Source: Patescibacteria group bacterium (GTDB lineage Bacteria > Patescibacteriota > Microgenomatia > Levybacterales > UBA12049). From it: 64,000 bases of DNA. The notes under the pieces are model-generated. The model was given only the letters and a program-made list of their open reading frames with translations. It did no database searches and had not been told where the DNA came from. Both the position numbers and the translations under genes were made by a program. Shown in pieces: positions 1,884 to 52,026 of the stretch (its first letter is position 1; each line of letters opens with the position of its first letter). The stretch lies in assembly GCA_038061615.1 (NCBI GenBank), contig JBBTYY010000015.1:1298-65297 (forward strand), read 5' to 3'.

Positions 1884-2759
1884 TTATTTTCTAGTTGTAA
1901 GAAAAATCCCAAAAAGAGCAAGCACTCCTCCTATAAAAAGTCCTGAAGTAAGCCTTTCTCCCAGAAAAACAAATGCCGCTAGGAAGGCAAAAATTGGTAA
2001 AAGGTAAAAAGAAGTTGAGGCAAACACTGACCCGGCATGTTTGATAGTATATTGGTTAAGTAAATAATTGAGTATTGTTCCAAAAATAGACACATAACTT
2101 AAAGAAATTATGCCAGATAACGAAAGTTGACTCAGCCATTTACTGTCTCTAATAAATTCAAAGATAAAAAATGGAAACAGAATAAAAGTTGTAATAAAAA
2201 TAAATGCGCTATTTATCACAAAAGGAGAATGTTCTTTGCTAAGTTTTTTTGAAAAAACCATATATAATGACCAAGAAATAACACCTATCACTATTAAAAG
2301 ATTCCCTACTAAATTCCCGGAAAACTGTTTATTCTGCTCAATTATTGGAAGAAGAACAACAATTGCGACACCTATAAAACCGACAACAATACCTAAGATT
2401 TTTTTTGACGATAGCCTGTCACCAAAAACAAGAAATGTAATTACTCCTGTCAAAAAAGGTACTCCTGCGTATAGCAGCTGACCTATCGTTGCGGTTGTAA
2501 ATCTTATCCCAAGAATAAATAAAATTACATTTAAAGTAGCAAATAGAGTAAAGGGTAGAAGGTTCTTTATTTTTTTAACTGAAACATTTTTGTTTTTAAA
2601 TACAATTGGTAATAATACAATCGAGGCAATAAAAAATCTTAAAAAAGAAAAAGTAAGAGGAGGAATTTCAACTAATCCAACTTTAATAACCGTAGTTACT
2701 GCCCCGCCGAACAAAGAACCAAATAAAATTGCCAGAAATGCTTTATTTCTATCAGACAC
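1884..2759 (-). CDS. EamA/DMT-superfamily transporter (10 TM)
   Basis: 291 aa, highly hydrophobic, with two repeated 5-TM halves typical of EamA-domain proteins. Confidence 0.7.
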   Translation of the reverse strand: MSDRNKAFLAILFGSLFGGAVTTVIKVGLVEIPPLTFSFLRFFIASIVLLPIVFKNKNVSVKKIKNLLPFTLFATLNVILFILGIRFTTATIGQLLYAGVPFLTGVITFLVFGDRLSSKKILGIVVGFIGVAIVVLLPIIEQNKQFSGNLVGNLLIVIGVISWSLYMVFSKKLSKEHSPFVINSAFIFITTFILFPFFIFEFIRDSKWLSQLSLSGIISLSYVSIFGTILNYLLNQYTIKHAGSVFASTSFYLLPIFAFLAAFVFLGERLTSGLFIGGVLALFGIFLTTRK

Positions 2760-2984: not shown

Positions 2985-3911
2985 CTAATCACTTGAGTAT
3001 TTAAGTGTTGCCTTATCTTCTTTTTCTTTACTGGAACTATGCAGTATAAGATCTGCTAAAAAACCTGTAAAGAAAACTTGAAGACCGCTTATGACAAGAA
3101 GCATTCCCAAAAATAAAAGAGGGCGTTTGCCTATAGAATAACCCTCAAGACGAAGAAGAGTGAGATATGCAAGGATTATTGTTCCCACAATAAAAATAAA
3201 TCCTCCTACGGGTGCAAAAAAATGAAGAGGCCTCCTGCTGTACCTTGAAAGAAATAGCATTGTAAACATATCCGGAATTTCCGTAAATACTTTAGAAAAA
3301 CCATACTTTGATTTTCCCAACTTTCTCTTATCATGAACGACAGGTACCTCTGCTACCAAAAATCCCTCCTGGTGAAGAATAAGGGGAATAAAACGGTGTG
3401 TCCCTCCGTATAAATTTAGCGATTTTGCAGCTTCCGCCCTGTAAAGCTTTAATCCGCAGTTTAAATCATTTACTTTCAAGCCCCAAAAGGAACTTGATAC
3501 TAAGTTAAAGATTTTTGATGATATATTTTTTGCAAAGGAATCTTTTCTGTTTTTTCTCCAACCCGATACCAGATCCCAACCATCCTTAGATTTTTTAATA
3601 AGTTTTTCTATCTGATCGGGTCTGTCCTGCAAATCCGAATCAATAGTAAGAATATATTCGCCTATGGCTTTTGTAAACCCAAGTGTTAGTGCCTCTGCTT
3701 TTCCCCGGTGCTTTCGAAAAGAGAAAATTCTGATGTTTTTATTCTCTTCTTCAAGTTTTTTTAAGATACTAAGCGATCCATCGGTTGACCCATCATCAAC
3801 GAAGATAACTTCAAAATCAACTTTGAGTTTTGATACCTGCAAAATAAGCTCTTTGTAAAAAGCACTTAAGCTTTCTTCCTCGTTAAAAACAGGCACAACA
3901 ACACTTAGCAT
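2985..3911 (-). CDS. GT2 polyprenyl-phosphate sugar transferase (ArnC/GtrB/DPM1-like)
   Basis: 308 aa with VVVPVFNEEESL, DDGSTDGS, DSDLQDRPDQI and RKNRKDSFAKN motifs plus two C-terminal TM helices. It is collinear with E. coli ArnC (Und-P-Ara4FN synthase) and GtrB. Confidence 0.85.
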   Translation of the reverse strand: MLSVVVPVFNEEESLSAFYKELILQVSKLKVDFEVIFVDDGSTDGSLSILKKLEEENKNIRIFSFRKHRGKAEALTLGFTKAIGEYILTIDSDLQDRPDQIEKLIKKSKDGWDLVSGWRKNRKDSFAKNISSKIFNLVSSSFWGLKVNDLNCGLKLYRAEAAKSLNLYGGTHRFIPLILHQEGFLVAEVPVVHDKRKLGKSKYGFSKVFTEIPDMFTMLFLSRYSRRPLHFFAPVGGFIFIVGTIILAYLTLLRLEGYSIGKRPLLFLGMLLVISGLQVFFTGFLADLILHSSSKEKEDKATLKYSSD

Positions 3912-3939
3912 GCTCGTATTTTACCATTTCCTAAAGGCT

Positions 3940-5001
3940 TTATGTCCAATTTTCTGTGCACCAACGTAGCGTTCTTTCTAATCCTTTCTCTATATCTATC
4001 TTCGGAAAGTATCCAAGCTCATTCTTAACTTTAGCCAGATCAGGACACCTGCGCTGAGATTCTCCCTGAGGGTAACCTTTTGGATATGGAACGTGCTCAA
4101 TCCTCAATTTATTGTTAAACATTTGGTTGAAGATTTTTGCTAAACGACTCATATCTATTTCATTTCGATCATTGCCAACATTATAGACCTCGCCATCTTT
4201 ACCACATAGTAAAGCGAGAAGAAAACCAGTCACTGCATCTGAAATATAACAAAATGTTCTTGTCTGTACTCCACTTGAGTACACTTGGATAGGTTTATCA
4301 TTTAACGCATTAAAAAGATAACTTGGGATGACTCTGTGATCATCCGGACGCATCCCTGGTCCAAATATATTGAATGGCCGTACGATTTTGCTAGGAGTCT
4401 TATAGAAATGTCTATACATCATGCATAGCGTTTCTCCTAATCTTTTTGATTCGTCGTAGTAAGACCGTGGGCCAATCGGGGACACATTCCCATTATATGT
4501 TTCCTTTGTAGGAATTACGTCTGGGGTTGGATCTCCGTATATCTCGCTTGAACTGAAGAAAAGAAAACTCTCAACTTTCTTTTTTTTTGCAATTTCCAGC
4601 ATATTTCTTGTACCAGTTACCGCTACATCGAGTGTCTCGAATGGATATTTACGATAGTAAAACGGGGAAGCAATTCCCGCTGCATGTATGATATAGTTAA
4701 TTTTACCCTCAAGATGCAAGGTACTTACAATATCTTGTTCGATATATTTGCAATGCTGCGTTTCATGTATGATTGATAAGCCCCCCTTAGGAGAGGTAAT
4801 ACGATTATCAATGACTATTATCTTACAGGGTTTTGGAAGGGTGTGCTCGTTAAGATAATTAATCGTACCCACGATGTATCTGCCTATAAACCCTAACCCA
4901 CCAGTTATTACAACGGTTTTCCCAGAGAGAGCAAACGCGCACTTACCAACAGCATTTACTATTTCCTTGAAATCCTCCTGCATAATATGATTAACGCTCA
5001 T
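3940..5001 (-). CDS. UDP-glucuronate decarboxylase-like SDR (UXS/ArnA C-domain family)
   Basis: 353 aa. GGLGFIGRYIV, IIHAAGIASPFYYRKYP, SSSEIYGDPTPDVIPTKETYNGNVSPIGPRSYYDESKRLGE and RPFNIFGPGMRPDDHRVIPSYLFNAL...YSSGVQTRTFCYISD match the UXS/ArnA-C signature blocks. Confidence 0.7.
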   Translation of the reverse strand: MSVNHIMQEDFKEIVNAVGKCAFALSGKTVVITGGLGFIGRYIVGTINYLNEHTLPKPCKIIVIDNRITSPKGGLSIIHETQHCKYIEQDIVSTLHLEGKINYIIHAAGIASPFYYRKYPFETLDVAVTGTRNMLEIAKKKKVESFLFFSSSEIYGDPTPDVIPTKETYNGNVSPIGPRSYYDESKRLGETLCMMYRHFYKTPSKIVRPFNIFGPGMRPDDHRVIPSYLFNALNDKPIQVYSSGVQTRTFCYISDAVTGFLLALLCGKDGEVYNVGNDRNEIDMSRLAKIFNQMFNNKLRIEHVPYPKGYPQGESQRRCPDLAKVKNELGYFPKIDIEKGLERTLRWCTENWT

Positions 5002-5004
5002 AAG

Positions 5005-6258
5005 TTATGACACTATTTTGGGAATGGGAACAGGAATAATAAATTTACCACCATTCTCTCTAAAACTTTGATACTTTACCATAATAGACTGAGCAAAGTT
5101 CCAAGCAAGTATCAAAATATAATCTGGCTTATACTTATCTAATATTTTAGGTGAAACTACAGGTATATGGGTACCAGGAGTATATAATCCTTGTTTTAAC
5201 GGACTATCATCGATTATATAATCTAATACCTCATTGCCAATTTTGAAATAATTTAATAAGGTATTTCCTTTTGCCGGAGCTCCGTAACCGATAATTTTTT
5301 TGTTTGAAAGTTTGATTTTTGTTAACAATGTCACAAGTTCCATTTTATTTTGTAATACACGTTTTCCAAAATCAATATAAGTGTCAACTTTATTAAGCCC
5401 CTTCTTTCTTTCCGATTCTACAAATTCCGAAACGGATTTTTCTATTTTAAAATTTCCCTCATTCTTTTTAATAAATACGCGTATTGATCCTCCATGCGAA
5501 TCTACCTTCTGAACATCAAAAATTGTCATATTAAATCTCTTGAAAAGCTTAACCAATGGTGATACTGCCCAGTAAGATAGGTGCTCATGGTATACAAGAT
5601 CAAAATATCTTTTCTCCAAAAAATCAACTAGATAGGGTGCTTCCATAATAAATATTCCATCTTTATCCAAAAGAATATCTAAGCCCCTTATTACCTCGTC
5701 CAAGTCGTCTATATGTGCGAACACATTCGTAGCAGTTGCTATTTTTACAATTCCATATTGACCTACAATTTTCTTCGCAAGTTGAGCACTAAAAAACTGA
5801 CTTATAGTTTCTACGCCCTCTTTTCGAGCTAGTTTTGCTATCTTAGAAGCAGGTTCTATGCCCAAAACTTTTGTTCCAAGATCTTTAAATGGCCTCAGAA
5901 GAATTCCGTCGTTACTCCCAATGTCCAAAACTAAAGATCCTTCTGTAAGTTTAAATCTTTTATAAATCTGTTTAGAAAATGTTTTAAAGTGATTTATAAA
6001 AACCTTAGAAGTTGAAGAAACATACACGTAGTCTTTAAAAAGTTCAACCGGAGAAACAACATGCCCAAGAGTTAGGAAATTGCAATTATTGCAAAAGTAT
6101 ATATCGAGAGGATAAAAATATTCCTCCCCATCAATCTTTTCTTTTGACAAAAATGCATTAGCAAGTGGAGTAGGACCAAAAGTAAGAACTTTTGTGAAAT
6201 CGTTGGCCTTACAAACCCTACAACTATTAATCTTTTTTATTAAAGGAAAATTTTTCAT
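5005..6258 (-). CDS. NDP-sugar C-methyltransferase (TylCIII/TcaB9-like: Zn-ribbon + SAM MTase + C-methyltransferase C-terminal domain)
   Basis: 417 aa. N-terminal CRVC...CNNC zinc-ribbon, a central LDIGSNDGILL SAM-binding motif, and a long C-terminal domain as in sugar C-3 methyltransferases. Confidence 0.65.
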   Translation of the reverse strand: MKNFPLIKKINSCRVCKANDFTKVLTFGPTPLANAFLSKEKIDGEEYFYPLDIYFCNNCNFLTLGHVVSPVELFKDYVYVSSTSKVFINHFKTFSKQIYKRFKLTEGSLVLDIGSNDGILLRPFKDLGTKVLGIEPASKIAKLARKEGVETISQFFSAQLAKKIVGQYGIVKIATATNVFAHIDDLDEVIRGLDILLDKDGIFIMEAPYLVDFLEKRYFDLVYHEHLSYWAVSPLVKLFKRFNMTIFDVQKVDSHGGSIRVFIKKNEGNFKIEKSVSEFVESERKKGLNKVDTYIDFGKRVLQNKMELVTLLTKIKLSNKKIIGYGAPAKGNTLLNYFKIGNEVLDYIIDDSPLKQGLYTPGTHIPVVSPKILDKYKPDYILILAWNFAQSIMVKYQSFRENGGKFIIPVPIPKIVS

Positions 6259-6261
6259 TGC

Positions 6262-6645
6262 TTAAACAAGTTTAACGCGAACAGTATCTTTCTCGTATTT
6301 TTTTCGATCACGCGATTCAGTGGTTAGAGCTATAAAAGATGAATCTTCCAAGAATCTCATTGCATGGATAGTCATTGGAGGACTTTCTACTATTTCCCCT
6401 TTTTTTACAATTATTTTATGCTTTTTTGCATTTTTGGCTTTAACGTCTTGATATGTATATTCCATTGAACCATTTACCATATAAGAATAATGCGTATCTT
6501 TTTTATGATAGTGATTAGCCCTAACTGCCCCTTTTTTACAAGTAATATATAAGACACTCGTAATATTGTTTGCATTATCAAGAAGATAACTCATTTCCCC
6601 TCTCTCATCGATAAAAAAAGGTTTTATTTTTTTAATGATTTTCAT
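6262..6645 (-). CDS. FdtA/WxcM-like cupin, putative NDP-4-keto-sugar 3,4-ketoisomerase
   Basis: 127 aa. IDERGEM and the HYHKKDTHY...VNGSMEY block parallel the FdtA RGFHAHK / LNGSCRV motifs. Predicted small cupin fold. Confidence 0.6.
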   Translation of the reverse strand: MKIIKKIKPFFIDERGEMSYLLDNANNITSVLYITCKKGAVRANHYHKKDTHYSYMVNGSMEYTYQDVKAKNAKKHKIIVKKGEIVESPPMTIHAMRFLEDSSFIALTTESRDRKKYEKDTVRVKLV

Positions 6646-7583
6646 TTTTGCTGCTGTAAAAGCTTCATTACTGTTTCGTAAATATCAACTATGCTAATCC
6701 CCAAGGTTTTTTTAACTGATGTAATTATTTCCGATGCATTAATTTCTTTACCTTCGTAATGAATATTTTTTATAATAATTGATCCATCTCCGGTCAAAAC
6801 TTCTACTCCATATTTTTTATGGACCACTGCAATTCTTCCTGGAATTCTTCCCTCGTAGACTCTGAGATTTTTAGCTATCTCACTATCCCAAACTATCATT
6901 TTTTTTCCTTCAAAGTATGTAAACGCGCCAGGGTAAGGTCTTGTTAATGCCCTTATCATATTAAAAATTTCTTGAGTACTTTTAGTCCAATCAATGTATC
7001 CATCTTCGGGAAGACGGGTGCAACAATAGGTTGGGAATCCTTTTTGCTTAAGCCCTCCATATCCTTTTAGAACTTTTTTAACTATTTCCGCCATATTTTC
7101 TTTAGTTAGTAAGTTAACTTTATCGTATATTGTTTTTACATTATCTTCTTGATTAATAGGTATCATGTACTGCGCATAAATGTCCCCTGCGTCAAGATCC
7201 GGTGTTGCTTCATGAAATGTTAGACCAATCTCTTTTCTTCCCAGAATTATGGCCCAATTAATATTCGCCCGTCCTCTCCATCTTGGCAAATCTCCATGAT
7301 GAACATTCATAAACTTTGTTAATTTAAGAATTCTGGCGGAAAGAATTTTATCGTAAGAAGATATAACAACAATATCAGGATGTGTATTTTTTACTAAGTT
7401 GAATATTTCTTCCTCCGAATTAACCTGAATTGTCTTTATCTTTAAACTGTTTGCCAAATCTTTAGCAGATGAGTTATCCCGAACAATGACCCATAGCAAA
7501 TCGAAATCTTTTATCAAAGTCTCCAAGGCAGATATACCCATTTCCCCGTAGGCAAAAAGCCCAACTCTATTTTTAGCTCTCAT
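6642..7583 (-). CDS. Sugar N-formyltransferase (ArnA N-domain / FdtF / WlaRD-like)
   Basis: 313 aa. NVHHGDLPRWRGRANINWAIILGRKEIGLTFHEATPDLDAGDI aligns with ArnA [32 protein letters not shown]...DAG. The C-terminal DWTKSTQEIFNMIRALTRPYPGAF matches ArnA [24 protein letters not shown]. Confidence 0.8.
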   Translation of the reverse strand: MRAKNRVGLFAYGEMGISALETLIKDFDLLWVIVRDNSSAKDLANSLKIKTIQVNSEEEIFNLVKNTHPDIVVISSYDKILSARILKLTKFMNVHHGDLPRWRGRANINWAIILGRKEIGLTFHEATPDLDAGDIYAQYMIPINQEDNVKTIYDKVNLLTKENMAEIVKKVLKGYGGLKQKGFPTYCCTRLPEDGYIDWTKSTQEIFNMIRALTRPYPGAFTYFEGKKMIVWDSEIAKNLRVYEGRIPGRIAVVHKKYGVEVLTGDGSIIIKNIHYEGKEINASEIITSVKKTLGISIVDIYETVMKLLQQQK

Positions 7584-7585
7584 AA

Positions 7586-8707
7586 CTATTTTTTAACTCC
7601 CTCAAAGTATTTACTTATTCTATCAACTACAAATTCTTGCATTTCTCGTGTCAATTCAGGGTAAATTGGCAAAGATAAAATTTCTGATGATATTTTTTCC
7701 GTTACTCTTAAGTCTCCCCTTTTATATCCTAAATAAGCATATGCCCTCTGTAAATGCAAGGGTATTGGATAATGAATTAACGACTGTATTTTGTTTTCTT
7801 TTAGATACTCCAATAATCCGTCTCTTTTTTTTGTCTTTATTACATAAAGGTGAAAAACATTCTTTCTGCCATTAAAAATTTTGGGAGTTTGGATAAATGG
7901 AACATATTTTTTTAGTAAATCTGAATAGTACTCCGATATCTTTATTCTTTTTTCATTCCACTTATCAAGATGCTTAAGTTTCACTCTTAAAACTGCAGCT
8001 TGAATACTATCCAGGCGGGAATTTACTCCTAAAATATCATGGTAGTATTTTTCTCTTTGTCCATATTCCCTCAACAACTTATATTTATTTGCTAATTCCT
8101 TGCTGTTTGTAACTATTGCGCCAGCATCTCCATACGCTCCTAAATTTTTTCCTGGATAAAAGGAAAAAGCAGAAAATATTCCGAATGTACCTACTTTTTT
8201 ACCTTGATATTCTGCTCCGTGTGCCTGTGATGCATCTTCTATAAAATGGATCTTTTTCCCTGTCTTTTTGATACTTTCTCTTATCTTTTCTATACTGTCC
8301 GGCTGTCCATACATATGAACCACTATTATTGCTTTGGTTCTATTGTTAATCTTCCTTTTTAAATCTTCCAGATTAATCTGGAAATCTTCGTTTATATCTA
8401 CAAAAACCGGCCTAAGGCCGTTCTCGGAAGCAGCTAAGGCTGTGGAAATATATGTATTTGCGGGTATTAGGATTTCATCTCCCTGTTCAAGCTCCAATGC
8501 CCTTACTCCCAATATCAAGGCATCGGTGCCCGAATTAACGCCAATGCAATAATTTGCTCCAAGATAATGAGCAAATTCCTCCTCAAATTTATTCACATCT
8601 TCGCCCTGGATAAATTTAGCGGATTGAATTACTTTGAATATAGCATTTTCTATTTCGGTTTGGATTTCTTCATATTGCAGCTTAAGATCAACAAAAGGAA
8701 TATTCAT
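7586..8707 (-). CDS. DegT/DnrJ/EryC1/ArnB-family PLP-dependent sugar aminotransferase
   Basis: 373 aa. GVNSGTDAL, FIEDASQAHGA and SFYPGKNLGAYGDAGAI; the catalytic Lys is present. Confidence 0.85.
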   Translation of the reverse strand: MNIPFVDLKLQYEEIQTEIENAIFKVIQSAKFIQGEDVNKFEEEFAHYLGANYCIGVNSGTDALILGVRALELEQGDEILIPANTYISTALAASENGLRPVFVDINEDFQINLEDLKRKINNRTKAIIVVHMYGQPDSIEKIRESIKKTGKKIHFIEDASQAHGAEYQGKKVGTFGIFSAFSFYPGKNLGAYGDAGAIVTNSKELANKYKLLREYGQREKYYHDILGVNSRLDSIQAAVLRVKLKHLDKWNEKRIKISEYYSDLLKKYVPFIQTPKIFNGRKNVFHLYVIKTKKRDGLLEYLKENKIQSLIHYPIPLHLQRAYAYLGYKRGDLRVTEKISSEILSLPIYPELTREMQEFVVDRISKYFEGVKK

Positions 8708-9711
8708 TTCTTAAATATCTTAATTAAATTATCTAAAATAAATTTTCTACCGTTATAATCTTTTAAAAACGCAAATAGAATAGTGTCGACCAGCAAAAAA
8801 GTAATAGGCGCTTCTAATAAATAGAGCCAGTTTTTGTATTTTACCATCTTATAGAGAGAAAAAAATAGTACAGGGAAAAAAAGGTTGGCAGATATGATAA
8901 GCAAAGAGAGCTTGAGAAAATCACGAAAATTGGTTAAATCAAACCACTTGTAGTGACCTCGCGTCTTTTCGTATCGAAGATAACTCCTCTCGACATTTCT
9001 AATTCTTTTGGCTAATAATTGACTTAAACTATCTGCATGAAAGTGATAATATCCAGCATCTGGAACGTATGCAAATTTGACGTATCCATTTTTTACCAGA
9101 AGTACAAGATTACCCATATCGTACCAAAGTTTTTTGCTACCCAAGAGCTCTCTCATAACACTCATTCGATAAAGACCATGCGATTGCGGTGGAATTTTAT
9201 CGATTCTGTATCTACAAATATAATACCCCTTCCTTCTTTCCTCTAAAACTTCCTCAATTCCTGGACTAAAAAATTGGTAGACAAGATCTCGCTGAAAAAC
9301 ATCAAGATTAAGGTATCGGGTTACAAGCGACTCTTTTGGATGGGAGTAGTACCGTGTAATTGAGGCTGCAATATCAGGATTTTCTATGAAAGGTTTTGCC
9401 ATTTTCAAAAACCAATCTCTCCCTCGAAAACGCATATCTGCCCCAATCGCGGTGAACAGGTCACCAGTTGCCGATCGAAATCCAATAGTCGCAGAAAGAT
9501 CACCATCTCGCTTACCATTTCGCAAGACCTTTACAGGAAAAGCTCTTGCGATAGTCACAGTATTATCTGTTGAATCATCATCTACGATGATCACTTCAAG
9601 TTTATCCTTTGGATAGTCTTGATTAAATATAGAAGTTAAACAATCTCTAATGTTTTCTTCTTCGTTATAAGTGAAAATGCAATAGCTAATCTTTGGTAAT
9701 GATGAAGGCAT
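8704..9711 (-). CDS. GT2 glycosyltransferase with C-terminal TM segments
   Basis: 335 aa. ISYCIFTYNEEENI, VIIVDDDSTDNT, and a C-terminal hydrophobic region. Confidence 0.7.
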   Translation of the reverse strand: MPSSLPKISYCIFTYNEEENIRDCLTSIFNQDYPKDKLEVIIVDDDSTDNTVTIARAFPVKVLRNGKRDGDLSATIGFRSATGDLFTAIGADMRFRGRDWFLKMAKPFIENPDIAASITRYYSHPKESLVTRYLNLDVFQRDLVYQFFSPGIEEVLEERRKGYYICRYRIDKIPPQSHGLYRMSVMRELLGSKKLWYDMGNLVLLVKNGYVKFAYVPDAGYYHFHADSLSQLLAKRIRNVERSYLRYEKTRGHYKWFDLTNFRDFLKLSLLIISANLFFPVLFFSLYKMVKYKNWLYLLEAPITFLLVDTILFAFLKDYNGRKFILDNLIKIFKK

Positions 9712-13606: not shown

Positions 13607-15793
13607 TTAATTCTTAAATATGAAGTTACGTCTTATCCCTATTAAAAGTACAACTAGTACAATAACCGTAAAAAGAGATACTAATCTTCCATAATAAAAA
13701 TATTTTTCTTGGGTGTAATAGACCTTAACATTATATTTACCAACTTTATTAAGCACAAAACTATTTAAGCCATTTTTTGTTTTATTCGAAGTTACGTATT
13801 TCCCGTCGATTCGTGCAATCCAATACGGACTGAAGTTTTCTGAGAAAACAAGCTTAGTAGGCTGCGAAATTTCTATATCCAAATCGTATGCTGTAGGACT
13901 AAGTATCTCATAGATCACTTTTCCTTCTCCCTGTAGCCAAAAATGGTTCTTGTATGATTGGGTTTCGTAAACTGTAATTTTGCCGGTTTTTATCTTTTTT
14001 AACCAACCTATATTATCTAATTGTTTTTCGAGATTAACTCTTTGTTTCTCATCGTATTTTCTGTCCCTCATGAAGATCTCCCCTATTGAATCGTATGGGA
14101 TAATTACATATTTTACAGACAGTTCTTCTAGTAATCTTTTAGATTCTGGTCTCTGTAATTTAGAAACTGTCTGGGCAGAATTTGCTTGCAGTGAGCTTGC
14201 CGAATCTGTTGCTTTAAAAAGTGGTTGTACCTCAACTGCCGGATGAATATTTGACGCGAAGGTAAATCTTTGCTGTCTTGGAATCCAAAGAGTTCGGAAA
14301 AAATCTGGTTGATCATACAAGAAGTCTTTTAGCTTTATGTATTCGCTTGGTACTTCATGTTTTTCAAACGTCCCCCCAAGCTGACCAAGAAAAACCGGCC
14401 TAATCAATAGTATTAAGTATAAAGTGATAAGTATTAAAAATAAGTTTTGGAAATTAAAAATTTTGTTTTTTATTGAAAATTGAAAATTGAAAATTGAAAA
14501 TTTATTATGCAATTCTAGCGATTCATAAATTTTCCAAATGCTAAAAGGTATCAACACAGAGTAAGACAGGGCGATTAGTGAATAGAATTTAGTTGAGTCT
14601 CTAAACATATTCATTCCGGGAAAATTTTGAAATAACCAGGAGTTAATTTCGCTAAATGGCGGGCTTGCGCCTTTGGCTAGAAATGCGCCAACCAAACCAA
14701 GCAAGGCAAAGAATATAATTGCTCCATTGTTAAATTGCTTCATTGCTACATTATTGTCAAATTTTTGATTTTTAATTTGTATTTTTGATCTTTGATCTTT
14801 AATTTTTGATATAAAAAGCAAACTGCTATACGCAAGTATCGGCAATATTAAAAACTCCGGTTGCAAAAAGTATATTTTTCCAAATATGTTTTCCGGCCAG
14901 TTAGGATGAAGAAGGGAAATACTATTTGAAAAATTTGCAAAACTAAAAAACTCAAATCCGGACACGCTAACAAAACCTTCCGGTATTGGCAAATTCTTGG
15001 TAAACAACAAGGGAAAAATCCAATAACTGTGAAGCAAAACCGCAATCCCAATAGGAATAGCAAAAGTATAAAGTAGAAAGTATAAAGTAGAAAGTATTTT
15101 CTCCCTTAGCGTTTTTACACTTAATGCATAATACGTCGTACTTAATACTGCATAGATTGCAATAGCAATCATACTTAAGTAAGCGATTCTGGGATCAAAC
15201 ATGACTTGAAGCGACAAGACCAATCCAGCAATAATTTGTAATTTGTAATTTGTAATTTGTAATTTGTAATTTAATGCGGAGGAATTAATTAAATTAACGA
15301 GTTTTATAAACCTTGCAAGAACAAGCGGTGCGATGGAGTAAGCCAACGCTACCCCCATCTGTCCTCCTCCGACTACCATTAAAATATATGTATTTGCAGT
15401 AAAAATAAGCGCAGATAGTCCTATCTGCCAAAAGCGGCTTCTGGAAAAAATAGTTTTTAAAAGATAAATGCTTGAAGAAATTGATAGAGCAATAAAAAGT
15501 CCAAACCAAAACAATTTATATCCAATAGCCCATGGTATATGCAAAATGCTAGTAGAAAGGTAAGCGCTAAAATAAAGATATTGATCCAGATAGTATGTTA
15601 GGATTGTCCCGCCAAGCCCATTACCATGAACCAAGCTCCAGGCAGGCGGAAACAATGTAAATTCTTTTAAGGTCTCATTAAAAAAATAGGGCCAATCTCC
15701 CCCAATTATGTTTGCATTAACAAACCATGAATAATAGATATCCACAAGCAAAATAATAAAAATACTAGTAAATAACATGCTCAATTTGCTCAT
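13607..15793 (-). CDS. Large polytopic membrane protein, YfhO/AftD-like putative GT-C glycosyltransferase (paralogue family A)
   Basis: 728 aa. More than 12 predicted TM helices, a periplasmic domain, and a C-terminal FSENFSPYW...TM anchor shared with 15790..19476 and 20673..23120. Contains several heptanucleotide repeat tracts in frame. Confidence 0.75.
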   Translation of the reverse strand: MSKLSMLFTSIFIILLVDIYYSWFVNANIIGGDWPYFFNETLKEFTLFPPAWSLVHGNGLGGTILTYYLDQYLYFSAYLSTSILHIPWAIGYKLFWFGLFIALSISSSIYLLKTIFSRSRFWQIGLSALIFTANTYILMVVGGGQMGVALAYSIAPLVLARFIKLVNLINSSALNYKLQITNYKLQIIAGLVLSLQVMFDPRIAYLSMIAIAIYAVLSTTYYALSVKTLREKILSTLYFLLYTFAIPIGIAVLLHSYWIFPLLFTKNLPIPEGFVSVSGFEFFSFANFSNSISLLHPNWPENIFGKIYFLQPEFLILPILAYSSLLFISKIKDQRSKIQIKNQKFDNNVAMKQFNNGAIIFFALLGLVGAFLAKGASPPFSEINSWLFQNFPGMNMFRDSTKFYSLIALSYSVLIPFSIWKIYESLELHNKFSIFNFQFSIKNKIFNFQNLFLILITLYLILLIRPVFLGQLGGTFEKHEVPSEYIKLKDFLYDQPDFFRTLWIPRQQRFTFASNIHPAVEVQPLFKATDSASSLQANSAQTVSKLQRPESKRLLEELSVKYVIIPYDSIGEIFMRDRKYDEKQRVNLEKQLDNIGWLKKIKTGKITVYETQSYKNHFWLQGEGKVIYEILSPTAYDLDIEISQPTKLVFSENFSPYWIARIDGKYVTSNKTKNGLNSFVLNKVGKYNVKVYYTQEKYFYYGRLVSLFTVIVLVVLLIGIRRNFIFKN
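14472..14499. repeat. (ATTGAAA)x4 tandem heptamer inside a ~100 nt 7-nt-periodic stretch (14411-14508)
   Basis: Directly visible tandem copies. Flanking DNA continues with the same 7-nt period (tattaag tataaag tgataag tattaaa ...). Lies inside CDS 13607..15793 and encodes ...FNFQFSIFNFQ... Confidence 0.9.
15233..15274. repeat. (AATTTGT)x5 perfect tandem heptamer plus a degenerate sixth copy
   Basis: aatttgtaatttgtaatttgtaatttgtaatttgtaatttaa. Inside CDS 13607..15793 and encodes NYKLQITNYKLQI. A 14-mer x2 (agtataaagtagaa) lies nearby at 15065-15092. Confidence 0.95.
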
Positions 15794-18700
15794 TTTAAAA
15801 TGATTTTTTTTGCAAAGAAGATGATAACAGCAAGAAAGGAAGCTAAGGATAGAAAAAGAAACCCATAGAAAGATTTTTGCGATGACAGCTCTATAGTAAG
15901 TGTATAATTCTCTTCTCCTTTTATATCTTGCGGTCTTATGATCCAGCCGTTGGCATACCCATTTACCTCAAAATGTCCGCCTTCAGCAATAGACCTTTTC
16001 CCCCATGTTTCAAAAGTAGATGGCGCAAGAAAAGTATTTGTGTGCATACCTTCTTTAACCATACCATTTAAATAAACCTGCTGAATCATATCGTGTCTTA
16101 TATCATCTTTTACAAAGATACCAACTAAAAATCTTTCCATCACTCCGAACATCCTAGATATTGCTCCTCGAATTTTTTCTTCACTACTAATATCCTTATT
16201 AAATAACTTCCAATTGGTATTAAATGCTTCTGAGAAAACAAGAGCATAAGGATCTTTTGCTCCACTGACAGTGACTTTATATTTCGTTGGGTTAATTTTT
16301 GTAAATATAATTTGCGGGGCAGCATATTTTTTAGAGAGCATAACTTTCTTAAACAGAATTCTGGGATACGGTACTTCTTCAACTCTAAGATTTTTTATAA
16401 GGACTTTATTGTTTATTTTGCCAGAATTTGCCAAAATATGAATATACCCGCCCAATGAACCTGGGTCGGAAGTAAAAACAGACTGGTGTATTTTCCAACC
16501 CTTAGAATTGAGGCTTTTTTCAAAAAAACTATTAGCTTTAATGCCTTCTCTTCTTCTCTCGTAAAACTTAAAAATAAAATCATCTCCATACGTGAGGTAA
16601 TCAAAGGTTACTATATATTGTCTATTTGGCCTCCAATTGGTAATTTCCTTCACTAATCCTGTTTCTTTTGCATAATCGCCAGAAGAATTTCCTGAAATAC
16701 TATGAATTGCTAATTCCGTGGAACTGATTACATTTTTCGTTTCTCCTGAATTTATCCAAAGAGAATCCTGAACTAAGTTAACAGTAGGAAGATATACAGT
16801 AAAATTTATACTCTCTTTACCGTTTATCACTATATTTTCAAATTTGGTTATTGCACCATTAATATTGCTTCCGGTAGGTCTTAATTTTGCCCCTTCAATT
16901 TCGATATATGCATTAGATAATCTATCAGGAAAATTTTCATTTTTATACTCTATATATACTTCGTATTCACCTGTTTCATCAGAAAGGTTAACCAAGCTGG
17001 CGTTGATAAAAGATGGTTTGACAGTTTTAATGTTTAATACCGCAGTTACATCACCCAACATAGTATGAACTAAACCTAAGAGGTAACGTTTTTCATATAG
17101 TGAATAAGCTGACTCTTTTATATTTGTTTCAAGGGTAATCTGATGTTGAAATAATTGCTCTGCTATTTTTATTCTATTTGCCTCTTGCCAGATCTTAGAT
17201 TCCGTTGTGTTGTTTACCCATTGCATTAATCCCATCATCCCTTCCTTATATCTGGCAATACTCGATTCCCAACTGTTATAGTTTTTCCAGTTATAAAATT
17301 CCCATAGCTTTGGTTCCTTCCATTGTTTCTTAACAATTGGTAGGTCCCATTTTGATGCTTCGGATATTCGTTTAGTCAAGAGCAAAAAACTTCGATCCAT
17401 ATACTTTTTATGTTGATTTTTTATTCTCCAAAGATCGAATCTTTCTCGCAAAATAGCAAATGGATATTGTATATCGTCTGGCTTGAGGGATATAAATGGT
17501 TGATGTTTATGTAAATGAGAGTTATCCGTTATCTCCCGTAAGGGGTTATTATCGTTTGCCTCCAAAATAACAGCAGTAGTATTTTTCATTGCATTATTAA
17601 CTTTAAAAATGGCAAAGGGTAAAGAAGCATTAAGCTGAGGAACTGAAAGAAGTGTGAGTGAATTGTTAGCTTGAATAATGTTCGTAGTTGCATATATATG
17701 AGGAAAATAAATATCATCTTTTATTGTATAAAGGTGGAATTTTTCACCGATGTCTCTTTTTTTCTCAATTGGCAGTTTATTAATAAATTCTCTGTATAAA
17801 TTTTGAGTTTGGGGAAGAAATGCCCGTACGTATCCGTAGGGAAACCCTGGAAATGTATTATCAAAAATATAAGGATCTGAATTGTAAAAAATATAGCGAA
17901 TATTCAGAATCGAAAAAAGATTTTTGATAGACTCGAAATCGTTATTCCTTACAGCTTGTAAAAAAAATTCAGAGAATGGTAATAACCCTTCATAACCGCT
18001 AAAATCATTTTTCCCTGCAAGGTAGGAAAATGTAGAAGGTCCTACATATGCTCCTCCATTTTTTCCTGCTATAAGCTGATACCCCGGATCAGGAAATGGA
18101 AAAGATAAAATTTTACCGTCAACTGGAAGATTGCGGATATAGGTAAGTACTTTCTCATATTTAGGGTCCATTTGTATAATTGGTTTTACGTATTTTGTTT
18201 GGTGCAGGTCAAGGCGATAAAAGGATCCATTAATAAATGGCCATGCCGTAAGCAAGGACAGTCCAACCACCACAAAACTCAACAAATACGCATATTTCTT
18301 TTTAACCTTATTAAAAACCGTATCCATTGATAAACCAAGTAAAACAGAGTAAAAAAACAGGTATGTAAACCCCCATTGACCATAAAAGTTACGAAACATA
18401 GAAAAACCAGGAATACGGAATAACGCTTTGTAAAAATTAAATCCAAGATCGGTTATATTTGCTGTAGCAAAAAAAAGTGTAACAAGAAAAAACAGAGCCG
18501 TTAAAAAAATAGTCTTTGTTTTACTCCACCACAATGCAAGAAAAATTATCGCGGGGAAAATAATAAAACCTGTAGATATGGTGTCTATCCTATGCAACTG
18601 GAGAAGACCCATAAAACTTATGCTTGCCTTAACGCTTTGCGCAATAGCAATAAAATAATCCAAACCTCTTGAGGATATCGCTTTTTCAGAAAAAACCGCA

Positions 18701-19476
18701 TTGTTAATCCCAGAGTCAGGAGATAACAAGTTGAGCAACTGTGGCACTAAATGAAATGCATGCAATAGAAGAAAAGCTGCTGCTCCAAAGCATAGTCCTT
18801 TTATGGGAATTGGAATTTTCCTAATGTATTTTGTATATATTAACAAAAATAAAAATGATAATGGATAAAAAGAAAAAAAACCCGGGGCCGCGACATAGGT
18901 AAAGTTAGGAGAAAAAAGTAAGGTCATCAATATAATTCCAGCAAGATATATAAGATTTGCACTCAAAAAATACCGTAAAAGAAGAAAAAAAATCAAGGGA
19001 TTTAGGAATATTTGATAATGAGTAATAATAGCTCTATCCCATCCAAGAATTGCAAAAGGAGAGAATATATAAAAAAATCCTGCCAGTATTGCAGAAGATT
19101 CTAGCCAATTTGATTCTTTTGTACCATTTTTTCCTTTCGTCACCTCTCTTACTATGCAATAAACTGAAACAAATGCTGTGCTAAGACTTATTCCATTGAA
19201 AATAGAGATAAGAATTGTAGGCGAATTAAAGAGATATTTAAAAAATGCAAGAAGTAATAAGTGCGGTATAGCCCAATAACTTACGGCCTCACCTCCAATT
19301 CCTGTCGGAACAACCCCATAGAGAGCTTGGTTAGTTAAATAAGATAGTGGGTCGTAAAAGTAAAGCCTGCTATTATCCCCACCCAAATCCATCTCGCCCG
19401 GTTTTAGCCAGAAAAAGGGAATAATAAATAAGGCAAAACATACAATAGCTACTACTATAAAATTATTTTTTTTCAT
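15790..19476 (-). CDS. Very large polytopic membrane protein, YfhO/AftD-like putative GT-C glycosyltransferase with ~400 aa extra central soluble domain
   Basis: 1228 aa. N-terminal FIIPFFWLKPGEMDLGGDNSRLYFYDP motif and ~14 TM helices. C-terminal ...VNGYANGWIIRP... plus a final TM anchor. Paralogous to 20673..23120, with a large insertion. ATGA overlap with the downstream gene. Confidence 0.8.
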   Translation of the reverse strand: MKKNNFIVVAIVCFALFIIPFFWLKPGEMDLGGDNSRLYFYDPLSYLTNQALYGVVPTGIGGEAVSYWAIPHLLLLAFFKYLFNSPTILISIFNGISLSTAFVSVYCIVREVTKGKNGTKESNWLESSAILAGFFYIFSPFAILGWDRAIITHYQIFLNPLIFFLLLRYFLSANLIYLAGIILMTLLFSPNFTYVAAPGFFSFYPLSFLFLLIYTKYIRKIPIPIKGLCFGAAAFLLLHAFHLVPQLLNLLSPDSGINNAVFSEKAISSRGLDYFIAIAQSVKASISFMGLLQLHRIDTISTGFIIFPAIIFLALWWSKTKTIFLTALFFLVTLFFATANITDLGFNFYKALFRIPGFSMFRNFYGQWGFTYLFFYSVLLGLSMDTVFNKVKKKYAYLLSFVVVGLSLLTAWPFINGSFYRLDLHQTKYVKPIIQMDPKYEKVLTYIRNLPVDGKILSFPFPDPGYQLIAGKNGGAYVGPSTFSYLAGKNDFSGYEGLLPFSEFFLQAVRNNDFESIKNLFSILNIRYIFYNSDPYIFDNTFPGFPYGYVRAFLPQTQNLYREFINKLPIEKKRDIGEKFHLYTIKDDIYFPHIYATTNIIQANNSLTLLSVPQLNASLPFAIFKVNNAMKNTTAVILEANDNNPLREITDNSHLHKHQPFISLKPDDIQYPFAILRERFDLWRIKNQHKKYMDRSFLLLTKRISEASKWDLPIVKKQWKEPKLWEFYNWKNYNSWESSIARYKEGMMGLMQWVNNTTESKIWQEANRIKIAEQLFQHQITLETNIKESAYSLYEKRYLLGLVHTMLGDVTAVLNIKTVKPSFINASLVNLSDETGEYEVYIEYKNENFPDRLSNAYIEIEGAKLRPTGSNINGAITKFENIVINGKESINFTVYLPTVNLVQDSLWINSGETKNVISSTELAIHSISGNSSGDYAKETGLVKEITNWRPNRQYIVTFDYLTYGDDFIFKFYERRREGIKANSFFEKSLNSKGWKIHQSVFTSDPGSLGGYIHILANSGKINNKVLIKNLRVEEVPYPRILFKKVMLSKKYAAPQIIFTKINPTKYKVTVSGAKDPYALVFSEAFNTNWKLFNKDISSEEKIRGAISRMFGVMERFLVGIFVKDDIRHDMIQQVYLNGMVKEGMHTNTFLAPSTFETWGKRSIAEGGHFEVNGYANGWIIRPQDIKGEENYTLTIELSSQKSFYGFLFLSLASFLAVIIFFAKKIILK

Positions 19477-20095
19477 TTAGCGTTTTTACAGCTAGAAGTT
19501 GATAAGATAGGCTTGGAAAATAATACAAGAATGGTTCAGTAATAAAGGCAATAATACCCCATATTATCCAAGGCTTATATTTTATTGTCGCACACGCTCC
19601 TCTTATGAATTTAAAACTGCGCAATCCATATACTTTATAACCAAATTTCTCGAAATCTCTTTTATTCCACCCAGATTTATGATGCTGATACGGGTTCTGA
19701 TCATAATGATCTTGATGACAAAATTCATTTGGAGTAAGAATAATTATTTTTTTCCGCGCAACTCTCTCCATTGTCCTAAGCAGTTGAACACCATCTTTTT
19801 TTCTTAAATGCTCAATCACATCTAGGGCAATGATAGCATCAAAAGTTTTTGGCTTATAATACGTATCAATTTCTCTAATATCTCCTACAATGTATCTGTT
19901 ATGTATTTTTCTTTTTTCACTTTTGTCGATACTTGGTTTATGAATATCAATGCCTTCTGAATAAATATTTTTTAATAAGAGACGGAGAGGCGAATTTTGC
20001 CCGCACCCTACATCTAAGATTGACTTATAGCCATAAATACCTCTGCTTATAATTTTATAAAAAAATATATCTTTGAACTGATTTATTGATTTCAT
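19463..20095 (-). CDS. Class I SAM-dependent methyltransferase
   Basis: 210 aa. ILDVGCGQN (motif I) and AIIALDVIEHL (motif post-II). Confidence 0.7.
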   Translation of the reverse strand: MKSINQFKDIFFYKIISRGIYGYKSILDVGCGQNSPLRLLLKNIYSEGIDIHKPSIDKSEKRKIHNRYIVGDIREIDTYYKPKTFDAIIALDVIEHLRKKDGVQLLRTMERVARKKIIILTPNEFCHQDHYDQNPYQHHKSGWNKRDFEKFGYKVYGLRSFKFIRGACATIKYKPWIIWGIIAFITEPFLYYFPSLSYQLLAVKTLNEKK

Positions 20096-20319
20096 AAAAC
20101 TGATATCTTCTCCATTGTCAAAATATTAAAATGTGATTCATTCTTTCTTTGCAAATAATATTCCAATAGTGTTATTACCGTTAATTACACCAACCACGAA
20201 ATTATTTTTTATCAGGAACTTTTTCTAGCAATTAACCCAAAGTAATTAAGATAGAATGATATTCGTAAAAACTTTTTCATGTATATTTAATTGTTTTAGA
20301 AATTGTCTTAACTTTGAAC

Positions 20320-20676
20320 TTATTCTTCTTTCCACTGCTGTATAATACCGATTAATAAGAAGAAAAAAATCCAGACTGCTGCTTTTTCTGTAGCTGGCGA
20401 CGTCCCCGTAAAAAGAAACTCAATGTACATGATTCCCAAAAGTACTAGGCAAAACAAAAAAGCATATCTTCCAGCAAGTTTATATAACATTATACTTATA
20501 CCGTATAGTCCTAACGTTATAAATATTCTTATGTCTGAACTTTCTGGAATAAGTAAAATATCTGCTAATACCGCCAAAACGACGATCGTAAGTAAAACTG
20601 GTTTGTTTTTCAAAGCGATATTAAGAAAAAATAAAGTTTTCTTGTTCCCTTGAAGCAAAGTAAAAGGAGAAATCAT
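20320..20676 (-). CDS. Small 3-4 TM membrane protein, hypothetical
   Basis: 118 aa, hydrophobic, 4-nt overlap with the upstream large membrane protein gene. No family motif recognised. Confidence 0.45.
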   Translation of the reverse strand: MISPFTLLQGNKKTLFFLNIALKNKPVLLTIVVLAVLADILLIPESSDIRIFITLGLYGISIMLYKLAGRYAFLFCLVLLGIMYIEFLFTGTSPATEKAAVWIFFFLLIGIIQQWKEE

Positions 20677-23120: not shown

Positions 23121-23182
23121 CAATGTTGGTATTATATCATCTTGGTATTGATAAAAATAAGAGCAGAGAATATAATTTCCGT

Positions 23183-49289: not shown

Positions 49290-49813
49290 AACGTTTTACT
49301 TCTTATAGCTATAGACGTATCGATAGTTGTCCAAAGATTTAGATTGGTTGGGGTATCTTTCTCCGGCGTCCATTTAAATTTATCAGGAACATTATTTTTT
49401 AATTTTTCAAACTCTTCAATGTGTTTCCTTGAAGCTTCTTTTAAAATTTTCTGTTTTTCGGATGTATTTTTTCCTTCTTTTTTTGCGGAAAGCAAATAAG
49501 GATAAATTTTCTCAAAGTATTGATTGGACTTAAGAAGAGATTTATATGCGAGGAGATATTGTTTATATTCAAATAGGGTTTTTGCTTGCACTAAATATTT
49601 ATCCGAAAGTCTTTGATAATAGTATGACTTACCGAAATTCCCAAAATACCAAAAGTAAGATACTTTTTCTATAACTTGATTAATTGTGTAAAACTTATTT
49701 CCGGGCATTTGTGAAGGATACGGAAGAACATAAGTTGACCCTGCATAAGCAGAAGTCGATAAGTACAAGAAAAAAACGAGGAGAAGTAATGTTTTCCATA
49801 GGCAACTTCTCAT
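49286..49813 (-). CDS. Secreted hypothetical protein (signal peptide)
   Basis: 175 aa. N-terminal MRSCLWKTLLLLVFFLYLSTSAYA signal peptide, Tyr/Lys-rich mature part, no recognisable domain. Confidence 0.45.
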   Translation of the reverse strand: MRSCLWKTLLLLVFFLYLSTSAYAGSTYVLPYPSQMPGNKFYTINQVIEKVSYFWYFGNFGKSYYYQRLSDKYLVQAKTLFEYKQYLLAYKSLLKSNQYFEKIYPYLLSAKKEGKNTSEKQKILKEASRKHIEEFEKLKNNVPDKFKWTPEKDTPTNLNLWTTIDTSIAIRSKTL

Positions 49814-50805: not shown

Positions 50806-50813
50806 AGTTTGTA

Positions 50814-51202: not shown

Positions 51203-51216
51203 AATGCTCTTACTTC

Positions 51217-52014: not shown

Positions 52015-52026
52015 GTAATGATGATA

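Follow-up and report, generated by a model that had tools for sequence, protein, structure and literature searches.

Three-component glycosylation systems combine a lipid-phosphate sugar synthase, a flippase and a GT-C glycosyltransferase, as in GtrB/GtrA/Gtr*, CsbB/GtcA/YfhO and PgfS/PgfM (PMC11127046). In the Arn (PmrF) pathway UDP-glucuronic acid (UDP-GlcA) is first oxidised at C-4 and decarboxylated. The enzymes that follow are a pyridoxal phosphate (PLP) dependent transaminase, a formyltransferase that takes N10-formyl-tetrahydrofolate (THF) and has an Asn/His/Asp triad, and an ArnC-type family 2 glycosyltransferase (GT2) with two C-terminal transmembrane (TM) helices, together with DMT-superfamily and GT-C proteins. 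Counterparts of all of these, the start from UDP-GlcA being predicted, are encoded in a 64,000-nucleotide stretch (the window) of contig JBBTYY010000015.1, from a Patescibacteria group bacterium of the Candidate Phyla Radiation (CPR), by six genes at positions 2985-8707 and by others outside them. Judged from the sequence, the operon with the six genes most likely makes a methyl-branched, N-formylated amino-pentose from UDP-GlcA and loads it onto a lipid carrier, a reading to which we give a probability of roughly 0.5. The genes lie on the minus strand, with gaps of 2-28 nt or 4-nt overlaps, and are transcribed from high to low coordinates in the order aminotransferase, formyltransferase, cupin, C-methyltransferase, short-chain dehydrogenase/reductase (SDR) and GT2 (Table 1). 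Open reading frame (ORF) calling and scans against Pfam and NCBIfam models agree with the initial annotation of this DNA, which had recognised six consecutive genes of these families.

Relatives of the locus were collected by a pattern scan over one genome per GTDB species, which returned at least 599 stretches, all encoding SDR relatives (~350 aa). The SDR relatives span the CPR, DPANN and other archaea, Alphaproteobacteria, Prochlorococcus, Elusimicrobia, Sorangium and a Mycobacterium. ORFs were called in the best 80 of these at least 599 stretches and labelled by BLAST comparison with proteins of the window and reference proteins from E. coli; unlabelled neighbours were clustered and representatives annotated. 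An SDR ortholog with at least 40% identity is present in 67 loci. Among these 67, the C-methyltransferase stands beside the SDR in 59 and the cupin in 39, usually in the order cupin, C-methyltransferase, SDR. A Gfo/Idh/MocA (GFO) oxidoreductase of ~307 aa, typically directly downstream of the SDR, is found in 37 and a GT2 of ~242 aa in 32. Seven loci have a gene of the UDP-Glc/GDP-Man dehydrogenase family, four have an aminotransferase like that of the window, and a single one has both the GFO enzyme and the aminotransferase. The GFO partner is closest to an archaeal UDP-GlcNAc 3-dehydrogenase (116 bits, full length). Examples of a five-gene GT2/cupin/C-methyltransferase/SDR/GFO module are found at L007:7365-10947 and L062:11125-12048. 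Carriers of this module include CPR, DPANN archaea, Alphaproteobacteria, Prochlorococcus, Elusimicrobia and Sorangium. Twelve loci have a more distant C-methyltransferase (30-40% identity), and the cupin is missing in ten of them.

The conserved part of a widespread module consists of the cupin, the C-methyltransferase and the SDR. The proposal that ketoisomerase and C-methyltransferase genes had been inserted between the halves of a split ArnA was not upheld, as the three genes recur as a core and relatives show the order SDR-formyltransferase, the reverse of ArnA. The aminotransferase and the formyltransferase, here and in some other CPR, are a lineage-specific replacement of the oxidoreductase, and the cassette is a rare amino version of the module. 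The interchangeability of a 3-dehydrogenase-like GFO enzyme with an aminotransferase of the C-3 clade suggests that both are C-3 keto enzymes, and points to a 3-keto intermediate.

The five enzymes, from aminotransferase to SDR, are co-located in three divergent CPR contigs (L093-L095) with 47-66% identity and in two gene orders. In L093 (Microgenomates) the order is that of the window, GT2-aminotransferase-formyltransferase-cupin-C-methyltransferase-SDR-ArnC-like GT2, with an EamA protein further on, at 54-66% identity. L094 has GT2-cupin-C-methyltransferase-SDR-formyltransferase-aminotransferase followed by a PMT-type GT-C gene, and L095 (Levybacteria) has cupin-C-methyltransferase-SDR-formyltransferase-aminotransferase. 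The clustering of the six genes is not due to chance, and content that is retained while the order changes is good evidence for a joint function of the five enzymes. Furthermore, at least 16 homologs of the formyltransferase (53-64% identity) match SDR homologs in the size of their longest contigs, suggesting shared contigs. We found no paper describing this combination of enzymes, which is weak evidence of novelty since most subscription journals lay outside the search.

The SDR is the likely source of the keto-pentose. Compared with solved structures (given here and below as PDB bit scores), it aligns end to end with human UXS1 (2b69) at 180 bits, versus at most 95 bits for RmlB and about 57 bits for ArnA-C. 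It is 25% identical to E. coli ArnA-C and reaches 62 bits on the NCBIfam ArnA model, whose cut-off is 777. The motifs SSSE (STSE in UXS), YDESK, FNIFGPGM and QTRTF are kept, residues S150-E153, Y182, K186, N211 and R248 are invariant in the SDR family (25 homologs), and the Asp of RmlB is missing. The SDR is thus a predicted UDP-glucuronate decarboxylase of UXS type rather than of ArnA-C type. The earlier description as a UXS/ArnA-C-like decarboxylase stands, with the decarboxylase residues in place. That of a split ArnA does not: identity to the corresponding ArnA half is no more than 26% for the formyltransferase and 25% for the SDR, and the latter is far closer to UXS. The synteny of the C-methyltransferase, the cupin and either the aminotransferase or the GFO enzyme with the SDR argues that its keto intermediate is used.

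The aminotransferase gives 345 bits with QdtB, 325 with DesV, 312 with 7n63 from Helicobacter canadensis, 297 with WlaRG, 223 with WbpE and 176 with NtdA, all of them C-3 enzymes, versus 157 with perosamine synthase, 134 with PseC, 134 with WecE and 117-131 with ArnB, which act at C-4. Outside the annotated structures the top match is 7b0d (386 bits). On the NCBIfam ArnB model the protein scores 169 bits (cut-off 631). By these scores the aminotransferase sits in the C-3 clade and not in the ArnB clade, which makes a C-4 amination, like that leading to 4-formamido-4-deoxyarabinose (Ara4FN), less likely. It had been annotated as ArnB/FdtB-like with an intact Lys. The lysine is indeed present, K187 aligning with the PLP lysine K188 of ArnB, but the likeness to ArnB is not borne out, and the amine position in the initial annotation is probably wrong.

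For the formyltransferase, the expected ArnA-N-like protein with an intact triad was recovered: it is 26% identical to ArnA-N over 304 aa, and N93/H95/D131 align with N102/H104/D140 of ArnA. The PDB scores are 106 bits for Fmt, 94-105 for ArnA, 79 for the GDP-perosamine formyltransferase, 45 for QdtF and 38 for WlaRD, and the NCBIfam scores of 172 (PRK06988), 161 (Fmt) and 153 bits (ArnA) are all under cut-off. These values place it, as a prediction, with the ArnA-N type at the family level only. A housekeeping Fmt was considered and rejected, the score being below the Fmt cut-off of 201.5 bits and the gene being embedded in a sugar module, with shuffled orders, in three relatives. A tblastn search with E. 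coli ArnD found no deformylase in the window at 1e-4, and Polysacc_deac_1 was not among the Pfam matches of the 68 window ORFs scanned; the lack of an ArnD-like deformylase suggests that the formyl group is probably retained. A Polysacc_deac_1 domain is present in one related locus (L008).

The C-methyltransferase matches MtmC (4rv9) at 355 bits over residues 7-416, KijD1 at 253 and TcaB9 at 241 bits. It keeps the MtmC-like YHEHLSY block with the active-site Tyr/Glu/His, and the CxxC...CxxC of the zinc ribbon at C13/C16/C56/C59, and its three Pfam domains confirm the TylCIII/TcaB9 architecture described earlier. The neighbouring cupin matches PF14667, Cupin_2 and the WbcJ C-terminal/WbuC model, and does not match the Pfam FdtA model at E<0.001. 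Its AlphaFold model (pLDDT 91.5) aligns in Foldseek with QdtA, FdtA, FdtD and WlaRA at E ~1e-7 and TM ~0.75, the fold matching both the 3,4-ketoisomerases and the CapF cupin. FdtA membership by sequence was rejected, as the ketoisomerases are not reached significantly with either the sequence alone or the profile of its family (WlaRA E 0.14). The best sequence matches are the Mn sites of OxdC, and the link to ketoisomerases comes by fold comparison only. Of the annotation as an FdtA-like cupin with conserved HxH, the HxH pair (H45-x-H47, invariant across the cupin family) and the likeness of fold hold; a likeness of sequence does not.

The ArnC-like GT2 gives 135-140 bits with ArnC over residues 2-289, 98 with GtrB and 52 with an archaeal DPMS, and shares 32% identity with E. 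coli ArnC in an alignment of residues 2-255. Its two C-terminal TM helices, already noted in the initial annotation, are predicted at residues 235-253 and 265-283. The NCBIfam ArnC model scores 148 bits (cut-off 529), with PgfS from Gram-positives second at 124 bits over the full length. We read this GT2 as a predicted polyprenyl-phosphate sugar transferase of the ArnC/GtrB class and not as an ArnC ortholog. A 62% ortholog stands at the same place in L093, and in 41 of the 80 loci an ArnC-type or small polyprenyl-phosphate-type GT2 is found no more than 10 kb from the SDR, often directly upstream of the cupin. The ~242-aa GT2 of the wider module aligns over its full length with PpgS and with dolichyl-phosphate hexose transferase. 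In L007, L008 and L094 the module is immediately followed by GT-C (PMT) genes. Next to the window GT2 lies an EamA/DMT transporter with nine hydrophobic segments, which has a 54% ortholog downstream of the GT2 in L093 and no BLAST similarity to ArnE/ArnF. It is a plausible candidate for a flippase in the role of ArnE/F. The window also encodes a Wzx-like flippase, and a 118-aa ORF (20320-20676) with four TM helices and no Pfam match, located between two large GT-C-like paralogs, recalls GtrA/ArnE-type small flippase subunits in size and topology, with no similarity detected.

A pathway can be proposed from homology, synteny and chemical logic. The UXS-type SDR would oxidise and decarboxylate UDP-GlcA to a UDP-4-keto-pentose, and the cupin, of the FdtA/CapF fold, would shift or epimerise the keto function, a shift from 4-keto to 3-keto being favoured. 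The C-methyltransferase of MtmC/TylCIII type would then methylate a carbon beside the keto group (C-4 or C-2) via an enolate, and the aminotransferase of the QdtB/DesV clade would convert the keto group to an amine, with C-3 favoured. The product would be garosamine-like, a 3-amino-3-deoxy-4-C-methyl (or 2-C-methyl) pentose. Using N10-formyl-THF, the ArnA-N/Fmt-type formyltransferase may cap the amine to give a 3-formamido-3-deoxy-C-methyl-pentose, whose formyl group is probably kept. The ArnC-like GT2 would move this sugar onto polyprenyl phosphate, the adjacent EamA/DMT transporter is the candidate for flipping the lipid-linked sugar, and GT-C enzymes of the window may then attach it, outside the membrane, to a glycan or protein of the surface. 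The formamido C-methyl amino sugar of the initial annotation survives, most likely as a pentose, and so does its idea of a lipid carrier. Its alternative, a 6-deoxyhexose, finds little support: neither a 4,6-dehydratase nor RmlA is encoded in the cassette, and the Asp of RmlB is missing from the SDR.

By analogy, the nearest known relative of the predicted sugar is the garosamine of gentamicin. Its ring is derived from xylose, oxidised and transaminated at C-3'' (GenD2, GenS2), N-modified, and methylated at C-4'' by a cobalamin/radical-SAM enzyme, the enzymes of the route being GenD2, GenS2, GenN and GenD1 (PMC4340712). Both would pass through a 3-keto intermediate to a 3-amino pentose with a C-methyl on the adjacent carbon, and a GFO-type oxidoreductase and a transaminase are the C-3 pair. 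In gentamicin, however, these steps take place after glycosylation, on the pseudotrisaccharide, the nitrogen carries a methyl and not a formyl group, and there is no lipid carrier.

The other described systems each share a part of the predicted pathway. Unlike in the Arn pathway, the decarboxylase is of UXS type, the formyltransferase and SDR are separate genes (in the order SDR-formyltransferase in L094 and L095), the aminotransferase belongs to the C-3 clade instead of being an ArnB, a C-methyltransferase and a cupin are added, and there is no ArnD deformylase. Patescibacteria are not known to produce lipid A, so the acceptor must differ from that of the Arn pathway. The Fdt/Qdt/WlaR systems, which make dTDP-3-formamido- and 3-acetamido-3,6-dideoxyhexoses, have a small cupin of ketoisomerase fold with an HxH pair, an aminotransferase of the QdtB, DesV and WlaRG kind closest to ours, and an amine that is N-formylated, as predicted here. 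In contrast to them, the present locus has no RmlA/RmlB, and its keto sugar would come from a UXS-type decarboxylase, hence as a UDP-pentose. Its formyltransferase is of the ArnA-N/Fmt type with an OB-like C-terminal domain and not of the WlaRD/QdtF type, its cupin has a four-His site, and C-methylation and, as proposed, delivery on a lipid carrier are added. The antibiotic deoxysugar C-3-methyltransferases MtmC, TylCIII, TcaB9 and KijD1 share the zinc ribbon, Rossmann methyltransferase and C-terminal domains and the YHEHLSY block, whereas our enzyme and its relatives occur in a cell-surface glycan context in uncultivated bacteria and archaea, with a UXS-like decarboxylase as partner instead of a dTDP-glucose 4,6-dehydratase, and the substrate is probably a UDP-pentosulose. 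The three-component systems combine a GT2 that makes the polyprenyl-phosphate sugar with GT-C transferases and a flippase that is small or of the DMT/MATE kind, to which the predicted GT2, the GT-C genes and the candidate flippase of the window would correspond; the known systems carry ordinary sugars (Glc, GlcNAc, Gal, Ribf), while here a dedicated five-enzyme nucleotide-sugar pathway is predicted to be joined to the system.

Several observations weigh against the proposed pathway. Canonical UXS re-reduces its 4-keto intermediate to UDP-xylose, and release of the keto sugar by the SDR is an assumption. A tblastn search of the 64-kb window with E. coli references found no homolog of Ugd, ArnD or RmlA. 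MtmC, TcaB9 and KijD1 methylate C-3 beside a 4-keto group on dTDP-6-deoxyhexoses, a regiochemistry that by analogy fits amination at C-4 better. With the C-methyltransferase related to C-3 methylating enzymes and the aminotransferase in the C-3 clade, analogy must fail for one of the two, which then acts differently from its relatives. The cupin retains the full four-His set of metal ligands found in CapF and OxdC, which FdtA-type ketoisomerases are not known to have, and it could for this reason be an epimerase. The Fmt model gives the formyltransferase a score as high as the ArnA model does, and every curated cut-off is missed. L094 and L095 carry the five enzymes but no ArnC-like GT2 within 9 kb, and the Pfam-recognisable GT-C genes of the window lie ~40 kb from the cassette. 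The other sugar routes of the window (the PseB-like dehydratase with an acetyltransferase, and a CDP cassette with its own C-methyltransferase) could in principle cross-feed.

The C-3 regiochemistry of the methyltransferase would be accommodated by an Arn-like route, which we consider rather unlikely, in which the UDP-4-keto-pentose is methylated at C-3, transaminated at C-4 and N-formylated, giving a 3-C-methyl analogue of Ara4FN on polyprenyl phosphate. The 355 bits to MtmC, the retained YHEHLSY block, ArnC as the nearest solved relative of the GT2, and a formyltransferase that resembles ArnA-N more than QdtF or WlaRD, the N-formyltransferases for C-3 amines, all fit such a route. The cupin does not: although strictly co-inherited, it would be left without a role, because methylation makes C-3 a quaternary centre and a pentose has no stereocentre at C-5, whereas amination at C-3 gives every enzyme a role. 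The annotated top relatives of the aminotransferase are, moreover, all C-3 enzymes, most relatives of the locus have in its slot a GFO oxidoreductase whose closest match is a UDP-sugar 3-dehydrogenase, and the window has no ArnD. We prefer the C-3-amine model over the Arn-like alternative, roughly 2:1. The SDR could also be read differently, with the C-methyltransferase, cupin and SDR acting as methyltransferase, epimerase and 4-ketoreductase on an NDP-4-keto-6-deoxyhexose, in the way of TylCIII, TylK and TylCIV in mycarose biosynthesis, and with the substrate supplied by a 4,6-dehydratase of the window. A PseB-like UDP-GlcNAc 4,6-dehydratase and a CDP-glucose route are indeed encoded (Table 1). 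We regard this as very improbable, given the end-to-end alignment of the SDR with UXS1, its invariant S-E, Y-x3-K, N and R, and its far lower scores on dehydratase, reductase and epimerase structures. An aminotransferase that uses the keto group makes a ketoreductase unneeded, RmlA-like genes occur near the module in 3 of the 80 loci versus 10 of the 80 for Ugd-family genes, and the CDP cassette has its own C-methyltransferase and SDRs.

That the genes do not form one pathway, or that the sugar is not lipid-linked, seems improbable. The nucleotide sugar might be used directly by a cytoplasmic GT2 or family 4 glycosyltransferase (GT4) of the cluster to build a repeat-unit glycan, with the ArnC-like GT2 carrying a different, ordinary sugar, or the aminotransferase and formyltransferase might serve the PseB-like and acetyltransferase genes. 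The absence of the ArnC-like GT2 near the enzymes in L094 and L095 and the Wzx-like flippase of the window are in keeping with the former, and against it stand the many loci with a polyprenyl-phosphate-type GT2 near the SDR and the GT-C genes right after the module in L007, L008 and L094. As to the latter, the PseB-like/hexapeptide/GT4 set of the window lacks an aminotransferase of its own, whereas its equivalents in L009 and L010 include a DegT gene; however, the aminotransferase and formyltransferase travel with the module and not with PseB-like genes, and the aminotransferase falls outside the PseC/PglE C-4 clade. None of the three observations that would have refuted the initial annotation was made, namely an SDR clustering robustly with 4-epimerases devoid of decarboxylase residues, a formyltransferase without its catalytic triad, or a GT2 without the polyprenyl-phosphate signature.

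The cassette lies in a glycan gene cluster (Table 1). The 335-aa GT2 gene shares 4 nt with the aminotransferase gene, and its 63% orthologs adjoin the module in L093 and L094; it is one of two further same-strand GT2 genes upstream of the six (10693-9716 and 9711-8704). Going by the sequence, there is about an even chance that the six genes, the flanking GT2 and the DMT transporter form one operon for an unusual lipid-linked amino sugar. The window has a G+C content of ~33%. A tRNA and Rfam scan of it found no RNA gene, and a promoter/terminator scan of positions 1-14000 gave counts not above those of shuffled sequence. Proteins identical to those of the window are encoded on 76-159 kb contigs of groundwater metagenomes from Hainich (filter fractions of 0.1 and 0.2 µm) and in the NCBI assembly GCA_964366505.1. 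An apparent 155-bp insertion in the aminotransferase gene of L001/L006 proved to be an artefact, consisting of a scaffold gap (100 N) and a 55-bp duplicate, and the window gene is intact. In L003 (ena:ERZ1286166 contig_3933, 159 kb) most genes of the locus are fragmented, which looks like long-read assembly frameshifts and not biological.

Table 1. Predicted genes and gene groups of the cassette and of other parts of the window (positions in the 64,000-nucleotide stretch).
Feature	Position	Strand	Matches and predicted role
EamA/DMT transporter, two-domain (291 aa, 9-10 TM)	1884..2759	-	PF00892 x2; candidate flippase
ArnC/GtrB-type GT2 (308 aa), two C-terminal TM helices	2985..3911	-	PF00535; predicted polyprenyl-phosphate sugar transferase
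UXS-type extended SDR (353 aa)	3940..5001	-	UXS1 likeness; predicted UDP-glucuronate C-4 oxidase/decarboxylase supplying UDP-keto-pentose
Zn-ribbon S-adenosylmethionine-dependent sugar C-methyltransferase (417 aa), MtmC/TylCIII/TcaB9 family	5005..6258	-	PF08421, PF13489, PF08484
Nucleotide-sugar cupin (127 aa)	6262..6645	-	predicted keto-sugar isomerase/epimerase, 3,4-ketoisomerase favoured
Formyltransferase (313 aa), N-terminal catalytic and C-terminal OB-like domain	6642..7583	-	PF00551, PF02911; predicted sugar N-formyltransferase
PLP-dependent DegT-family sugar aminotransferase (373 aa), C-3 (QdtB/DesV) clade	7586..8707	-	PF01041, 376 bits
GT2 (335 aa)	8704..9711	-	PF00535; TM helices 268-286, 298-316; glycan glycosyltransferase or second lipid-phosphate glycosyltransferase
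PseB-like UDP-GlcNAc 4,6-dehydratase	11455-12471	+	357 bits, just under cut-off 408
Two large membrane paralogs (1228, 850 aa; 47% identical)	15790-19476, 20673-23225 (span 15790..23225)	-	distant GT-C-like candidates
RfbH/E1-like 3-dehydrase	23123-24400	+	343 bits
Split transketolase-like pair	24384-26128	-	
CDP-glucose 4,6-dehydratase-like SDR	27064-28029	-	
Glucose-1-phosphate cytidylyltransferase	28062-28772	-	249 bits
Second Zn-ribbon C-methyltransferase	31665-32936	-	
GT-C array, eight polytopic ORFs	46507..62979 (blocks 46507-48156, 52027-62979)	-	paralog group; 7/8 match PMT_2/PMT/PTPS_related

Candidate acceptor-side enzymes are numerous in the window. Seven ORFs of the array (549, 550, 431, 507, 511, 574 and 575 aa, with 8-10 TM helices each) match GT-C Pfam models, and a 498-aa ORF (56460-57956) joins the group by paralogy. 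The paralogs stand in pairs or triplets with 30-42% identity, with unrelated genes between the blocks, and an array of eight is unusually large for a small-genome CPR organism. The downstream ArnT-like arrays that had been reported correspond to this array, which is real but distant from the cassette and without BLAST-level similarity to ArnT.

Both large paralogs have ~10 TM helices at the N-terminal end, then a large part outside the cytoplasm and one more TM helix at the C-terminal end; the span that they occupy also holds a 210-aa methyltransferase and the 118-aa ORF with four TM helices. Their family has 1803 cluster representatives (E<=1e-3) in size classes of ~800 and ~1200 aa. Neither paralog, nor a 728-aa membrane protein of the window, has a Pfam match even at E<5. 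In hhalign the profile of the 1228/850 family matches that of the window PMT_2 group with a probability of 97.7% (E 2.5e-12, 328 columns), whereas other polytopic proteins of the window, run as single sequences against both profiles, stay below 4%, except the unassigned o378 at 21-36%. This profile-profile comparison, the only tie of the family to GT-C, suggests a distant relationship. When the pair is counted, the GT-C genes of the window lie 12-60 kb from the module. In L009 and L010 a homolog of the large paralogs (25-26%) is encoded ~5.8 kb past the gene for the SDR. The 728-aa protein (13607-15793, ~10 predicted TM helices) has no detectable relation to either GT-C group of the window and, among the loci compared, is present only in assemblies of the same population.

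A second unusual-sugar cassette, by a CDP route, extends over 23123-35110 on the minus strand, except for 23123-24400 on the plus strand. Besides the genes in Table 1 it has a second DegT protein and a GDP-fucose-synthase-like SDR, and another such SDR lies just outside (36244-37188). Its gene content suggests a branched 3,6-dideoxyhexose. A divergent plus-strand set (10876-13599) contains a hexapeptide acyltransferase, the PseB-like dehydratase and a GT4. Two genes for four-helix-bundle proteins annotated as '23S rRNA intervening sequence protein' (PF05635) lie within the glycan cluster (41159-41527 and 50840-51202), the latter also matching a bAvd-like model (PF22296); L009 has a homolog in the same relative position. 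The window starts with genes for an NYN-domain protein (286-897) and for a small Bro-N-like protein (908-1177), after which a 197-aa ORF (1265-1858) with only a weak match to the N-terminal half of GT4 may be a truncated glycosyltransferase.

All enzymes of the cassette come from known families, and the logic by which a keto sugar is tailored, placed on a lipid carrier and used by GT-C enzymes is established; no new principle is involved. If the proposed pathway is correct, the product would be a new branched amino-pentose, and a UXS-type enzyme would have a new use in feeding a keto-pentose into C-methylation, isomerisation and amination. The three-component logic would then cover a donor whose synthesis takes a five-step nucleotide-sugar pathway of its own. 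A function would also be assigned to a module present in at least 599 stretches, one genome per GTDB species, for which we found no described product. The pathway would further be the first concrete handle on the surface products of the many GT-C enzymes of ultra-small CPR bacteria, and would bear on the interactions of CPR episymbionts with their hosts and phages.

More tentatively, and with the odds somewhat against it, the core unit of cupin, C-methyltransferase and UXS-like SDR, completed by either the GFO oxidoreductase or the aminotransferase and formyltransferase, may make an undescribed family of C-methyl-branched pentoses that are delivered by lipid phosphates and GT-C enzymes to the cell surfaces of many bacterial and archaeal phyla, the CPR version being an N-formylated, garosamine-like 3-amino sugar. 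The route would then be a widespread, unrecognised branch from UDP-GlcA and a non-radical way to a 4-C-methyl (or 2-C-methyl) pentose.

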